Shown piece by piece: positions 2,647 to 6,940 of a DNA stretch of 64,000 nt; within the stretch, counting starts at the first letter, position 1; each line of letters begins with the position of its first letter. Made by a program: the position numbers and the translations under genes. Below the pieces are notes generated by a model, which saw only the letters and a list, made by a program, of their open reading frames with translations, made no database searches and was not told the DNA's origin. Source of the DNA: Mustelus asterias (taxonomy: Eukaryota); the NCBI RefSeq assembly GCF_964213995.1, contig NC_135803.1, forward strand, positions 105,524,001-105,588,000. Direction: 5' to 3'.

Positions 2647-3342
2647 CACTGTCTGAGGATTCAACAAAAGGGCATCACAACTGAGGCTGTTGGGCCTCTC
2701 ATAAATATATTTATTCACCTCCAAGTCTCTCACCTTCCTGACTTGGAAATTTTTAAAAAATATACTTTTCCAATTCAATCAAATCAAATCCAATTCAGAG
2801 TCTCAACAAAGAACAAAGAACAATACAGCACAGGAACAGGCCCTTCGGCCCTCCAAGCCCGCGCCGCTCCCCGGTCCAGGATTGAATCCTGAATCCAGGA
2901 TCCCCGCCCAATTTTCCAGCCTATCTACATACCAATATCCTATCCACCGAGCTGTCCCTCACAGCTACGATGCTTTGTTCATTACAACCTATTAACTTAC
3001 CCCCACCCCCCCATTCCAGACCATGTGATCTCCAGGGAGAGGCGAAAACCCAGAGTGAAAAACCCCAGGGCCAATATGGGGAAAAAAAATCTGGGAAATT
3101 CCTCTCCGACCCCCTGAGGCGATCGAAACGAGTCCAGGAGATCACAATGGCCCCGATCGGAAAATGCTTCCCAACCCTAGTCATTTCCACTTCCACGAAC
3201 ACCATATGAATTCCCTGCCCCCGAGACAGGTTCCCAACTATCCGCAGTCTCACTCTGTACTGGCACCAGCAAGATGATCATAGAATGAAGCCTTGAAACG
3301 AGAAACCAGGAACAATTAGCCCGCGCCGCTCCCTGGTCCAAA

Positions 3343-6225
3343 CTAGACCACTCTTTTGTATCCCTCCATTCCCACTCCGTTCATATAGCTGTCTAGATAA
3401 GTCTTAAACGTTCCCAGTGTGTCCGCCTCCACCACCTTGCCCGGCAACACATTCCAGGCCCCCACGACCCTCTGTGTGAAATATGTCCTTCTGATATCTG
3501 TGTTAAACCTCCCCCCCTTCACCTTGAACCTATGACCCCTCGTGAACGTCACCACCGACCCAGGGAAAAGCTTCCCACCGTTCACCCTATCTATGCCTTT
3601 CATAATTTTATACACCTCAAGTAAGTCTCCCCTCATCCTCCGTCTTTCCAAGGAGAACAACCCCAGTTTCCCCAATCTCTCCTCATAACCAAGCCCCTCC
3701 ATACCAGGCAACATCCTGGTAAACCTCCTCTGTACTCTCTCCAAAGCCTCCACGTCCTTCTGGTAGTGTGGCGACCAGAACTGGACGCAGTATTCCAAAT
3801 GCGGCCGAACCAACGTTCTATACATCTGCAACATCAGACCCCAACTTTTATACTCTATGCCCCGTCCTATAAAGGCAAGCATGCCATATGCCTTCTTCAC
3901 CACCTTCTCCACCTGTGACGTCACCTTCAAAGATCTGTGGACTTGCACACCCAGGTCCCTCTGCGTCTCTACACCCTTTATGGTTCTTCCATTTATCGTG
4001 TAGCTCCTCCCTACATTATTCCCACCAAAATGCATCACTTCGCATTCATCAGGATTGAACTCCATCTGCCATTTCCTTGCCCAAATTTCCAGCCTATCTA
4101 TATCCTTCTGTAGCCTCTGACAATGTTCCTCACTATCTGCAAGTCCTGCCAGTTTTGTGTCGTCCGCAAACTTACTGATCACCCCAGTTACTCCTTCTTC
4201 CAGATCATTTATATAAATCACAAACAGCAGAGGTCCCAATACAGAGCCCTGCGGAACACCACTAGTCACAGGCCTCCAGCCGGAAAAAGACCCTTCCACT
4301 ACCACCCTCTGTCTTCTATGACCAAGCCAGTTCTCCACCCATCTAGCCACCTCCCCCTTTATCCCATGGGATCCAACCTTTTTCACTAGCCTACCATGAG
4401 GGACTTTGTCAAATGCTTTACTAAAGTCCATATAGACAACATCCACGGCCCTTCCTTCGTCAACCATTTTAGTCACTTCTTCAAAAAACACCACCAGGTT
4501 TGTGAGGCATGACCTCCCTCTCACAAAACCATGTTGACTATCGTTAATGAGTTTATTCCTTTCTAAATGCGCATACATCCTATCTTTAAGAATCTTCTCC
4601 AACAACTTCCCCACCACGGACGTCAAGCTCACCGGCCTATAATTACCCGGGTTATCCTTCCTACCCTTCTTAAATAACGGGACCACATTGGCTATCCTCC
4701 AATCCTCTGGGACCTCACCTGTGTCCAGTGACGAGACAAAGATTTGCGTCAGAGGCCCAACGATTTCACCTCTCGTCTCCCTGAGCAGCCTTGGATAGAT
4801 TCCATCAGGCCCTGGGGATTTGTCAGTCTTTATATTCTCTAACAAACCTAACACTTCCTCCTTTGTAATGGAGATTTTCTCCAACGGTTCAACACTCCCC
4901 TCCGAGACACTCCCAGTCAACACATCCCTCTCCCTTGTGAATACCGACGCAAAGTATTCATTTAGGATCTCCCCTACCTCTTTGGGCTCCAAGCATAGGT
5001 CCCCACTTTTGTCCCTGAGAGGTCCGATTTTTTCCCTAACAACCCTTTTGTTCCTAACGTATGAATAAAATGCCTTGGGATTCTCCTTAATCCTGTCTGC
5101 CAAGAACATTTCGTGACCCCTTTTTGCTCTTCTAATTCCCCGTTTGAGTATTTTCCTACTTTCATTATACTCCTCCAGAGCTCCCTCCGTTTTTAGCTGC
5201 TTGGACCTAACATACGCCTCTCTTTTCCTTTTGACCAGTCCCTCAATTTCCCTGGTTATCCACGGTTCTCTAATCCTACCCTTCCTATCCTTCTTTTTTA
5301 CAGGCACATGCTTGTCCTGTAGCCCTAACAACCGTTCCTTAAAAGACTGCCACATACCAGATGTGGATTTACCCTCAAACAGCCTCTCCCAATCAAGAGC
5401 TGCCAATTTCTGCCTGATCCCAATAAAGTTAGCCTTCCCCCAATCCAACACCTTACCCTTGGGACACCACTCATCCTTTTCCATCACTATCCTAAAGCTA
5501 ACAGAATTGTGGTCACTATTTGCCACATGTTCCCCAACCAAAACTTTGAAGACCTGACCGGGCTCATTCCCCAGCACCAGGTCCAGTATAGCCCCCTCTC
5601 TAGTTGGGCTGTCCACATATTGTTCCAACGAACCCTCCTGTACACATTTTACAAATGTCTCACCATCCAGAGTCCCTGCCCTCAGCGATTTCCAGTCTAT
5701 ACCAGGGAAATTGAAGTCTCCCACTACAACAACCCTATATTTCCTGCACCTATCCAGTATCTCCTGACATATCCATTCTTCCACTTCCCTTGGGCTGTTG
5801 GGGGGCCTGTAGTACACCCCCAACATAGTGACTGCGCCTTTCCTGTTTCTAAGCTCCACCCAGAGTGACTCGCTACACGACTCCTCCGAATTGTCCTCCC
5901 TCTGCACCGCTGTAATATGCTCTCCAACCAATACCGCTACTCCCCCACCTCTTTTGGCCCCTCCTCTGTCTCGCCTAAAACACTTGTACCCTGGAATATT
6001 CAGCTGCCAGTCCTGTCCCTCTTTCAACCAAGTCTCTGTCACTGCAACCACATCCAAATTCCTCGTGCGCATTAAGGCCCCAAGTTCGTCTGTTTTACCT
6101 GCTACGCTCCTTGCATTGAAGTATAAGCACTCCAGACCCCCAGGCTCAGTGAGGTCGTCCTCCCCCAGAGTGCTCTTCTTCTTTGCCAGCCTTGTCCCAG
6201 CCCCAAGCTCGTCCCCAGCCACCAC
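3343..6225 (-). CDS. CR1 ORF2: AP endonuclease + reverse transcriptase
   Basis: EN motifs YFNARS, VTETW, GVYYRPP, VVGDFN, SDH; RT motifs YRPVSLTS, QHGF, DFSKAFDKV, GVPQGSVLGP, KFADD; no stops. Confidence 0.95.
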   Translation of the reverse strand: MVAGDELGAGTRLAKKKSTLGEDDLTEPGGLECLYFNARSVAGKTDELGALMRTRNLDVVAVTETWLKEGQDWQLNIPGYKCFRRDRGGAKRGGGVAVLVGEHITAVQREDNSEESCSESLWVELRNRKGAVTMLGVYYRPPNSPREVEEWICQEILDRCRKYRVVVVGDFNFPGIDWKSLRAGTLDGETFVKCVQEGSLEQYVDSPTREGAILDLVLGNEPGQVFKVLVGEHVANSDHNSVSFRIVMEKDEWCPKGKVLDWGKANFIGIRQKLAALDWERLFEGKSTSGMWQSFKERLLGLQDKHVPVKKKDRKGRIREPWITREIEGLVKRKREAYVRSKQLKTEGALEEYNESRKILKRGIRRAKRGHEMFLADRIKENPKAFYSYVRNKRVVREKIGPLRDKSGDLCLEPKEVGEILNEYFASVFTRERDVLTGSVSEGSVEPLEKISITKEEVLGLLENIKTDKSPGPDGIYPRLLRETRGEIVGPLTQIFVSSLDTGEVPEDWRIANVVPLFKKGRKDNPGNYRPVSLTSVVGKLLEKILKDRMYAHLERNKLINDSQHGFVRGRSCLTNLVVFFEEVTKMVDEGRAVDVVYMDFSKAFDKVPHGRLVKKVGSHGIKGEVARWVENWLGHRRQRVVVEGSFSGWRPVTSGVPQGSVLGPLLFVIYINDLEEGVTGVISKFADDTKLAGLADSEEHCQRLQKDIDRLEIWARKWQMEFNPDECEVMHFGGNNVGRSYTINGRTIKGVETQRDLGVQVHRSLKVTSQVEKVVKKAYGMLAFIGRGIEYKSWGLMLQMYRTLVRPHLEYCVQFWSPHYQKDVEALERVQRRFTRMLPGMEGLGYEERLGKLGLFSLERRRMRGDLLEVYKIMKGIDRVNGGKLFPGSVVTFTRGHRFKVKGGRFNTDIRRTYFTQRVVGAWNVLPGKVVEADTLGTFKTYLDSYMNGVGMEGYKRVV

Positions 6226-6266
6226 ACTTATAGACCTAATAGTTTGATCCCCACCCCCCTGCCATA

Positions 6267-6914
6267 CTAGTTTAAACCCCCCCGAACTGCATTAGCAAAG
6301 CTCCCAGCCAGGATATTTGTGCCCTTCCAACTTAGTTGTGACCCCTCCCTCTTGTACAGGTGCCATCCTCTCCTGAAAACCTCCCATTGGTCTATGAAAA
6401 TAAAGCCCTCCCTCCTGGACCAGTCCTTTAGCCAGGCATTCATTTGAACCAACTCCCTATTCTTATCCTCACTGGCACGAGGCATTGGGAGCAGCCCAGA
6501 GATGGCCACCCTAGTGACCCTACTTTTTAACCTATTTCCCAACTCCCTGAATTGCTCTCTTAGGACCCCCCTACTCTTCCTATCTACGTCATTTCCACCA
6601 ATGTGTATAATGACATCCGTTTCTTTATCTTCCCCTTTTAAAATGCCTCCTATCCGCTCGGAGACATCCGTGACCCCAGCACCAGGTAGGCAGACTACCA
6701 TCCTGGAGTCCCGTTCGCCCCCACAGAATCGCCTGTCTGTCCCTCTAACTGACGCATCCCCCACCACTATCGCTCTCCTAACCCCTCTCTTCCCTTTCCG
6801 GGCCACAGAGCCTGACTGTGTGCCAGTGACCTGGTCACTGTGTCTTACCCCTGGAGAGGCACACTCCTCCACACTATCTAAAACAATGTACCTGTTTTGG
6901 AGTGGGACAACCAC
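6267..6914 (-). CDS. CR1 ORF1 C-terminal part, SGNH-esterase-like domain
   Basis: PLQNRY, IVVGD.SVRG, VCLPGA, HIGGND, SGLLP and ending GLN*, typical of CR1 ORF1. Confidence 0.85.
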   Translation of the reverse strand: MVVPLQNRYIVLDSVEECASPGVRHSDQVTGTQSGSVARKGKRGVRRAIVVGDASVRGTDRRFCGGERDSRMVVCLPGAGVTDVSERIGGILKGEDKETDVIIHIGGNDVDRKSRGVLREQFRELGNRLKSRVTRVAISGLLPMPRASEDKNRELVQMNAWLKDWSRREGFIFIDQWEVFRRGWHLYKREGSQLSWKGTNILAGSFANAVRGGLN

Positions 6915-6940
6915 AGGAGAACGTGCAGACTATATTAACA

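Follow-up and report, generated by a model that had tools for sequence, protein, structure and literature searches.

A conserved slippery heptamer at the ORF1-ORF2 junction of a shark CR1 retrotransposon points to programmed -1 frameshifting

How does a retrotransposon produce its reverse transcriptase (RT) if the reading frame that encodes it lacks a usable start codon? Translation of LINE ORF2 is termed an open question in one passage of a review (PMC3894237), and the known answers, those of L1 and SART1, involve reinitiation. The issue is raised by a CR1 copy in a stretch of 64,000 nucleotides from Mustelus asterias (contig NC_135803.1, positions 105,524,001 to 105,588,000; "the window"), a member of a group that, according to PMC13343379, dominates most vertebrate genomes. 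An initial annotation proposed that ORF1 and an AUG-less ORF2 of this element are fused by -1 ribosomal frameshifting, and sequence comparison, through conservation, a fixed -1 offset and covariation, supports this proposal. Since a conserved slippery heptamer ends ORF1 and ORF2 is open at -1, ORF2 of CR1 is likely to be made by programmed -1 frameshifting as an ORF1-ORF2 fusion of approximately 1,313 amino acids, with a probability of roughly 0.85.

Layout of the element and its junction

Assignment to CR1 (esterase ORF1 type) follows from domain layout and element ends: ORF2 encodes an APE endonuclease and an RT, as detected by Pfam, ORF1 carries an SGNH esterase, and the copy is 5'-truncated and terminates in short tandem repeats without poly(A), the latter two traits being CR1-defining (Table 1). 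Pfam reveals no protease domain. Three full-length sisters match the copy at 99.4-99.6% identity across about 4.1 kb, and their translations give a complete ORF1 of 338 residues with a Cys-motif, a predicted coiled-coil-like stretch and the esterase. Relatives with an esterase ORF1 are named in rays, sharks, turtles, lizards and a bird; none were present in the viral contigs searched.

Table 1. Features of the CR1 copy, in window positions
Feature	Position	Strand	Basis
CR1 LINE copy, young, 5'-truncated within ORF1	2805..6920	-	identity to sisters
ORF1 3' part, SGNH/GDSL esterase domain	6267..6920	-	Pfam Lipase_GDSL_2 E 1e-8; sister translations
Slippery heptamer U_UUA_AAC, final two ORF1 codons and the preceding U	6270..6276	-	same in 11/11 lineages
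ORF1 stop codon, TAG here; elsewhere TAA, TGA or one codon further	6267..6269	-	
Conserved G-rich core GGGGGRNGGG, +11 to +20, candidate stimulator	6250..6259	-	column counts, 11 lineages
Linker, 45 codons, only -1 frame open, no AUG	6136..6270	-	
ORF2, intact, 977 codons from slip site	3343..6276	-	
APE-type endonuclease domain	5509..6123	-	Pfam Exo_endo_phos E 4e-14; L1 endonuclease structures match weakly
First in-frame ATG of ORF2, within endonuclease	6070..6072	-	
Reverse transcriptase domain	3973..4659	-	Pfam RVT_1 E 4e-35
3' UTR, ~540 nt, internal direct repeat, short TTCTTTG repeats at end	2805..3342	-	alike in three sisters

The junction has the architecture first described for it. 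The minus strand reads GGT TTA AAC TAG from 6278 to 6267, placing an X_XXY_YYZ heptamer in zero-frame phase directly before the stop, and ORF2 lies in the -1 frame, where 982 codons are open from stop to stop (6291-3346), 977 of them counted from the TTT at 6276. This frame opens just five codons upstream of the heptamer, none of them ATG; it is open from the site onward and possesses no conserved start of its own. Its first ATG, at 6072, does fall after the endonuclease motif YFNARS, 15 codons past the motif's Asn; YFNARS aligns at the start of a weak match to the human L1 endonuclease, near residue 14 of the latter (phmmer E 0.0015). An ATG immediately following the ORF1 stop was also considered as an ORF2 start and rejected, being in the +1 frame, which closes after nine codons in the window CR1 family.

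The 64-kb window contains TTTAAAC 19 times, counting both strands; the 7-mer is not rare alone, and its meaning thus rests on position and conservation. A 381-nt segment spanning the junction is 100% identical in the best 40 of 40 genome hits, and three of the four fetched full-length sisters combine an intact ORF1, an ORF2 of 977 codons and the same junction, which indicates that it is not an accident of one copy. Variation within the family is uninformative, as these best 40 hits are identical.

Conservation and covariation of the heptamer

Comparison was extended to 11 lineage representatives within the same genome, with esterase identities of 38-87% (seven groups at 72% or less). T TTA AAC is present in all 11, which share kinship and are thus not independent counts, and the elements that surround it vary: the preceding codon takes seven forms, encoding as many amino acids and always ending in T, and both stop codon and linker length differ. 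Synonymous variation in the heptamer and a variable ORF2 offset had been named at the outset as observations that would speak against frameshifting. The former is absent among the 11 lineages, and an offset of -1 is modal in every cluster with more than three copies (per-cluster tallies of 31/31, 19/30, 11/20, 11/15, 6/12, 2/2 and 1/3, representatives having been chosen intact where possible). Elsewhere in ORF1, all nine other invariant Leu columns vary synonymously, as does the other invariant Asn column, and just 4 of 32 other invariant degenerate columns hold a single codon; TTA accounts for 23 of 156 Leu codons and AAC for 26 of 81 Asn codons. Conservation at the nucleotide level therefore exceeds what the protein needs. 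At a broader scale, a protein query or its coordinates served to collect 113 junctions, 106 of which read TTTAAAC, and the seven that deviate are single-copy substitutions or indels, two of them from one duplicated copy.

Covariation provides a further line of support. From protein tails, G_GGA_AAC had been predicted for distant relatives with Gly-Asn as the ORF1 terminus, and DNA confirmed this heptamer, in phase, at all three readable loci, the contig of a fourth being too short. At the sole locus long enough (L081), ORF2 lies at -1 and stays open across 64 codons, reaching the endonuclease. This exchange of UUU for GGG in the X triplet matches the pattern predicted for tRNA slippage, and as a sequence comparison supports frameshifting anew. 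Complete ORF1 tails (n = 119) end in LN in 76 cases, GN in 11 and KN in 2, the remaining 30 esterase ORF1s, about a quarter, having other ends. The residue before LN is one encoded only by pyrimidine-ending codons in 20 tails and only by purine-ending codons in one, versus 0 and 8 before GN (Fisher 2e-6; 2.5e-4 after 60% dereplication). ORF1 proteins of turtles, lizards and birds also end in Leu-Asn, as known from protein tails only; the KN, SN, EN and FR tails likewise come from protein sequence.

Prokaryote genome contigs were also searched. The amniote ORF1 alignment found no match there, and a DNA motif scan gave 14 hits, 13 of them unrelated; the other, L152, lies on a contig that is likely a host contaminant and represents the decayed terminus of a distant esterase ORF1. 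In this decayed copy, against the -1 pattern, the endonuclease is in frame 0, following a G run.

Linker, G-rich core and competing explanations

Between heptamer and endonuclease, linkers of 38-100 codons are stop-free at -1 in nine of 10 representatives, with 1-17 stops in each of the other two frames, and only 0.5-12% of dinucleotide shuffles are stop-free. Linker pN/pS is 0.32-0.68 in eight of the 12 pairs of related lineages that yielded a value. The description of ORF2 as AUG-less holds for the window family and for five of 10 lineages; the other five do contain an in-frame linker AUG, at unrelated positions, and an upstream AUG conserved across lineages, which would have pointed away from frameshifting, is not found.

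These data bear on termination-reinitiation or non-AUG initiation, in which ribosomes would restart at a near-cognate codon in the -1 frame, the junction would act as reinitiation signal, and ORF2p would be a separate protein. Precedents exist among LINEs, since translation of L1 ORF2 is held not to depend on its AUG (in a passage of PMC5009743) and SART1 is cited as using reinitiation (in portions of PMC3894237 and PMC10275272). Furthermore, in 12 of 14 representatives nothing separates the stop from the conserved motif, and the codon six positions ahead of the conserved Asn is a near-cognate or genuine start (CTG, TTG, ATA or ATG) in nine of 10 lineages, L081 having ATG exactly there. This position, however, houses a hydrophobic strand residue, CTG and TTG make up 83 of 156 Leu codons in any case, and lineage G carries TTA. 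In addition, the linker 5' of this codon is kept open under purifying selection, the heptamer is retained where the stop lies one codon further on (lineage E, L084), and reinitiation gives no reason to expect, in slip phase, a homopolymer triplet that is UUU in some families and GGG in others next to a constant AAA-C. Such a restart is thus improbable, even if it survives better than the explanations that follow.

Downstream, the initial annotation had placed a G-rich stimulator at the usual position. The tract of the window family, GGCAGGGGGGTGGGG (6263-6249), indeed starts 6 nt past the heptamer, but its sole part conserved across the 11 lineages is the core from +11 to +20 rather than from +7, and related contigs cease to match at 6250. 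The conserved candidate thus sits 10 nt downstream, beyond both the common spacer of 5-9 nt (as given in a section of PMC7618472) and the 6-8 nt that a part of PMC3919603 reports as optimal for G-quadruplex stimulators, and no structure is predicted for it. Folding stability in four downstream windows showed no stem-loop or pseudoknot-like signal (z from -1.09 to +1.07, in a model that omits pseudoknots), Rfam matched no frameshift element family, and the region 3' of the heptamer is nearly free of C. A two-tier quadruplex pattern occurs in nine of 14 representatives and in the predicted fold of six, so that a G-quadruplex is not universal among them. For long-range pairing of the G tract, the best duplexes reach -19 to -23 kcal/mol, values not calibrated against shuffled sequence, and lineages differ in the C run of the YRPP codons.

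The conserved letters of the junction could also reflect constraint on two overlapping proteins, a Leu-Asn esterase end and a Phe-Lys-Leu-x-x-x-Gly-Gly ORF2 start, with no recoding involved. Overlapping frames do limit synonymous change, and the core encodes Gly-rich residues at -1; however, all 11 lineages have G at third positions +11 and +14 although GGG represents 41 of 100 Gly codons in the window ORF2, Leu/Phe is replaced by Gly/Gly in the GGG families, and some esterase ORF1s have tails other than LN. Moreover, in seven of 10 lineages the -1 frame becomes open just 1-5 codons ahead of the heptamer, a stretch that contains no start codon, and the entry of ribosomes would still need a cause. 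Protein-level constraint by itself is consequently quite unlikely.

Splicing of ORF1 or the 5' UTR to ORF2, with AAC-TAG as 3' splice site, is very improbable: CTAG resembles a YAG acceptor in the window family, but the stop varies among TAG, TAA, TGA and TAT, so that AG is missing in four of 11 lineages and no splice acceptor, a feature listed at the outset as contrary evidence, is conserved, there is no pyrimidine tract, and GT-AG ends in the orientation of the element are found at none of five listed joints (a weak count, from contigs of four runs that are not clearly host RNA). Equally hard to credit is slippage by a transcribing or reverse-transcribing polymerase, which would add one A and fuse the frames in RNA, as the extra A that occurs naturally in the heptamer of L115 and L116 does, because the run holds only three A where such slippage usually needs more, the matching X triplet is left unexplained, and L115 and L116 are one duplicated, truncated copy (shared flanks, 95.7% identity over 3.1 kb). 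For the same reason these two loci were rejected as an active single-ORF family, being one dead copy.

Proposed mechanism and relation to known systems

In the frameshifting mechanism that we infer, slip, slip rate and stimulator included, most ribosomes would decode Leu (UUA), Asn (AAC) and the stop, releasing the esterase ORF1p, and in a minority both tRNAs would shift one base back onto UUU and AAA, bypass the stop and continue through linker, endonuclease and RT to the predicted fusion. The G core would most likely serve as a linear roadblock, protein-bound or quadruplex-forming, and slow termination at the adjoining stop could possibly assist the slip. If correct, this would recast the CR1 replication protein as a fusion of esterase, endonuclease and RT, explain the frequent absence of a usable ORF2 start codon, correct consensus annotation, and determine the form in which retrotransposition assays have to express an intact CR1; a G-rich stimulator free of structure would add a new class of signal to those known for frameshifting. 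The junction motif is 30 nt long, and young intact copies exist.

A wider proposal, tentative and rather doubtful at present, is that esterase-CR1 elements throughout their clade, from families of invertebrate type to those of sharks, birds and reptiles, produce RT in a Gag-Pol-like fusion through a -1 frameshift of ancient origin, stimulated by a protein-bound short G-rich motif instead of an RNA fold, with ORF1p as a possible binder. RT output would then be coupled to the level of ORF1p, RT would be tethered in cis to an esterase particle, and the commonest retrotransposon of non-mammalian vertebrates would be exposed to host frameshift inhibitors.

U_UUA_AAC is the coronavirus slippery site and G_GGA_AAC that of PEG10, and in Rous sarcoma virus gag-pol the stop adjoins the slippery site. 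With viral and LTR-element signals CR1 shares a structural ORF upstream of a polymerase ORF in the -1 frame, the stop beside the site and, in the form outlined in a portion of PMC7618472, the X_XXY_YYZ rule with its phase. It differs in being a non-LTR element with no protease by Pfam and no predicted hairpin or pseudoknot, its conserved 3' element being a short G-rich motif at +11. Closer in this respect is the nsp2 site of the arterivirus PRRSV, described in a section of the same paper as protein-stimulated, without RNA structure, through a conserved linear motif 10 nt downstream of the shift site; that motif, however, has a C-rich sequence to which nsp1beta binds together with PCBP, whereas that of CR1 is G-rich and has no known binding protein. 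Among APE-type LINEs, a legend in a review (PMC5911963) states that ORF2 of Dictyostelium TRE5-A and TRE3-A requires a -1 frameshift; these are amoebozoan elements of a different clade, with an ORF1 unrelated to that of CR1, and the legend gives neither heptamer nor experiment. A literature search found no report of -1 frameshifting for CR1, and the description of vertebrate esterase-ORF1 CR1 whose layout of esterase ORF1 and APE-RT ORF2 the window element fits (PMC13343379) makes no mention of frameshift, slippery site, start codon or overlap, handling ORF2 as a separate protein. L1 and SART1, finally, resemble CR1 in having a bicistronic LINE RNA and low-level ORF2, but reinitiation, in the passages cited above, yields a free ORF2p, whereas frameshifting in CR1 would yield a fusion.

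The element and its junction

On its domain layout we file the window LINE as a putative esterase-type CR1, and the named ORF1 relatives nearest to it in a protein search come from rays and sharks. The family is very young, since all 40 of the best genome matches agree exactly with its junction, and three of the four full-length sisters examined carry an intact ORF1 and a 977-codon ORF2.

The initial annotation had read ORF1 as ending in GGT TTA AAC TAG, ORF2 as lying in the -1 frame, and the first in-frame ORF2 ATG as falling only inside the endonuclease, all of which is borne out; the -1 frame is open from five codons upstream of the heptamer. The endonuclease motif bypassed by that ATG aligns, in a weak match, near residue 14 of the L1 endonuclease, and its Asn is what we take to be an active-site residue. 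Because the 7-mer TTTAAAC occurs 19 times in the 64-kb window, the meaning of the heptamer can rest on conservation only.

Features of the CR1 copy and its surroundings (window positions)
Feature	Position	Strand	Remarks
LINE copy	6920-2805	minus	truncated inside ORF1; 99.4-99.6% identical to full-length sisters
ORF1			SGNH esterase domain (domain search)
ORF2			APE endonuclease and reverse transcriptase domains (domain search)
ORF1 end	6278-6267	minus	GGT TTA AAC TAG
Heptamer	6276-6270	minus	U_UUA_AAC
First in-frame ORF2 ATG	6072		
3' UTR	3342-2805		~540 nt
Host repeat	7214-6937 and 2803-2761	minus	~320 nt; interrupted by the CR1 copy
Additional stretch	6936-6921		at CR1 5' junction
13 nt upstream of host repeat	~7227-7215		

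The host repeat is young. Its start is formed by the 5' end of U2 snRNA, a second partial U2 copy lies further inside, and its 40 best matches, of 1,065 candidates, are all 99-100% identical. Uninterrupted sister loci (L168, L169) finish in an A-rich tail, L169 being flanked by a duplication of ~22 bp. The repeat looks like a U2-derived SINE, which we take to resemble crocodilian SINEU. The additional stretch, with its four preceding bases, repeats the 13 nt just upstream of the host repeat and is possibly a templated insertion. Family-wide, the 3' UTR has a direct repeat of ~22 nt at each end and a second G tract like that of the junction.

In the final esterase block, the window ORF1 and its sisters have EGSQL and GDA in place of their relatives' DGLHL and GDS, so that this recently active lineage appears to have lost Ser, Asp and His, its predicted catalytic residues. 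The 441-aa ORF1 relative P0002, ending in GGLN, resembles the window lineage in its N-terminal half and a second lineage in its coiled-coil and esterase, and is a possible recombinant. A CR1 ORF1 filed as a Pseudomonas aeruginosa SGNH hydrolase (P0017) and a CR1 junction on a contig of a bacterial MAG (L152) are likely host contamination.

Conservation and covariation of the heptamer

Other CR1 lineages of the M. asterias genome were gathered by protein searches with divergent ORF1s, followed by retrieval of the stretches at those coordinates. TTTAAAC is present in 106 of 113 junctions unselected by junction DNA, 30 loci found by junction search being excluded as circular. The 11 lineage representatives share 38-87% esterase identity (seven groups at 72% or less), and the heptamer proved free of synonymous variation, with Leu as TTA and Asn as AAC in 11/11. 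The preceding codon ends in T in every lineage, yet encodes Gly, Ser, Cys, Thr, Ala, Arg or Asp, and the ORF1 stop is TAG in seven, TAA in two, TGA in one and one codon further on in one. With T-TTA-AAC fixed and the stop and preceding residue variable, the constraint therefore concerns seven nucleotides, not the stop or neighbouring residues. As controls, the codon varies in 9/9 other invariant Leu columns and in the other invariant Asn column, and only 4 of 32 other invariant degenerate columns use a single codon. Loci L115 and L116 (G000 C31, C73) have gained one A within the heptamer, ORF1-ORF2 being in frame for ~600 codons; the two share flanks and appear to have arisen by segmental duplication of a single truncated copy, and similar long frames occur on other small contigs.

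The strongest test of the putative slippery site is covariation of its X triplet across 185 ORF1 homologues (36 from one search and the best 150 of 1,239 from another, one common to both), among which 119 complete tails end in LN (76), GN (11), KN (2) or otherwise (30). If tails represent X_XXA_AAC, the codon before LN should end in T and the codon before GN in G. Residues with pyrimidine-ending codons only and purine-ending codons only number 20 and 1 before LN versus 0 and 8 before GN (Fisher 2e-6, indicative since the sequences are related); dereplication leaves 14/0 vs 0/7 at 70% and 10/1 vs 0/7 at 60% (Fisher 2.5e-4). Metagenome contigs, scanned with a pattern from the opposite end of the esterase, away from the junction, yielded four loci, and the three that extend to the ORF1 end all carry G GGA AAC in phase. 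These are 26-39% identical to M. asterias lineages and 40-47% among themselves; in one, L081, the -1 frame is open for 64 codons, into the endonuclease. A variable XXX with constant AAA and C fits the published slippery-site rule (PMC7618472). At the protein level, 12/12 aligned amniote-type ORF1s, five of them named as turtle, lizard or swallow, end in Leu-Asn. Judged comparatively, the junction is a genuine cis-signal, conserved over deep divergence, and it shows every comparative hallmark of a -1 slippery site.

Linker, candidate stimulator and the probable route to ORF2

Linkers between heptamer and endonuclease motif were compared in 10 of 14 representatives, intact copies where available (dropped: two contig ends, one frameshifted copy, one variant endonuclease motif). 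They span 38-100 codons and are stop-free at -1 in 9/10, with 1-7 stops in frame 0, including that of ORF1, and 2-17 in +1; shuffled linkers are stop-free in 0.5-12%. Between related lineages pN/pS is 0.32-0.68 (values from 8 of 12 pairs; uncorrected, small counts, overlapping pairs). The proposed constant ORF2 offset holds, -1 being the modal intact state in every cluster of more than three copies (unselected tallies 31/31, 19/30, 11/20, 11/15, 6/12, 2/2 and 1/3). Such features argue that the linker is read in the -1 frame.

We assign a probability of about 0.85 to ORF2 being produced as an ORF1-ORF2 fusion through programmed -1 frameshifting. Most ribosomes would terminate after ORF1p (338 aa), and some would slip at the last two ORF1 codons, giving a fusion of ~1,313 aa (338 + 975, computed) that would likely stay uncleaved, since a domain search of the element found no protease domain. 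Reinitiation or a non-AUG start is an improbable source of ORF2, kept alive by a near-cognate or AUG codon (CTG, TTG, ATA or ATG) six before the conserved Asn in 9/10 representatives, for which a hydrophobic strand residue accounts equally well. The claim of an AUG-less ORF2 stands for the window copy and fails for 5/10 lineages, whose linkers contain AUGs (codons 16, 36, 46, 72 and 61/64); that at codon 16 is Lys in both sister lineages. All other explanations together are slightly less probable still.

Of the G-rich stimulator proposed near the heptamer, a conserved G core survives, at +11 to +20, and the family's leading GG does not. Column counts over 11 lineages give conservation from -7 to +2, none from +3 to +10, and then the core, whose third codon positions +11 and +14 are G in 11/11. 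Contigs of related elements cease matching exactly at 6250, where the core ends (4, 21 and 25 loose ends in three runs). A quadruplex pattern is present in 9/14 representatives, and no downstream RNA fold is better than shuffles. We favour, less firmly than the slip site, a stimulator acting as a linear protein-bound or quadruplex roadblock, helped by the adjoining stop.

Comparison with known systems

A full-text literature search, which covered few subscription journals and not the first CR1 descriptions, so that an older passing suggestion is possible, found no report of frameshifting in CR1. The accessible portion of PMC5009743, which describes AUG-independent initiation for L1 ORF2 and a gag frameshift for HeT-A, does not mention CR1 by keyword; the comparison also took in parts of PMC3894237, PMC13343379, PMC4255032, PMC2734521, PMC5006619, PMC11303007 and PMC10275272. 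The idea of a -1 frameshift is not new for LINEs as a class, because Dictyostelium TRE5-A and TRE3-A need one according to a figure legend in PMC5911963; the present signal would place it in a major LINE clade for which no earlier report was found. According to PMC3919603, a quadruplex can promote -1 shifting on UUUAAAC, most effectively at 6-8 nt. The CR1 junction is like the protein-bound PRRSV motif, as described in PMC7618472, in its 10-nt spacing and absence of structure.
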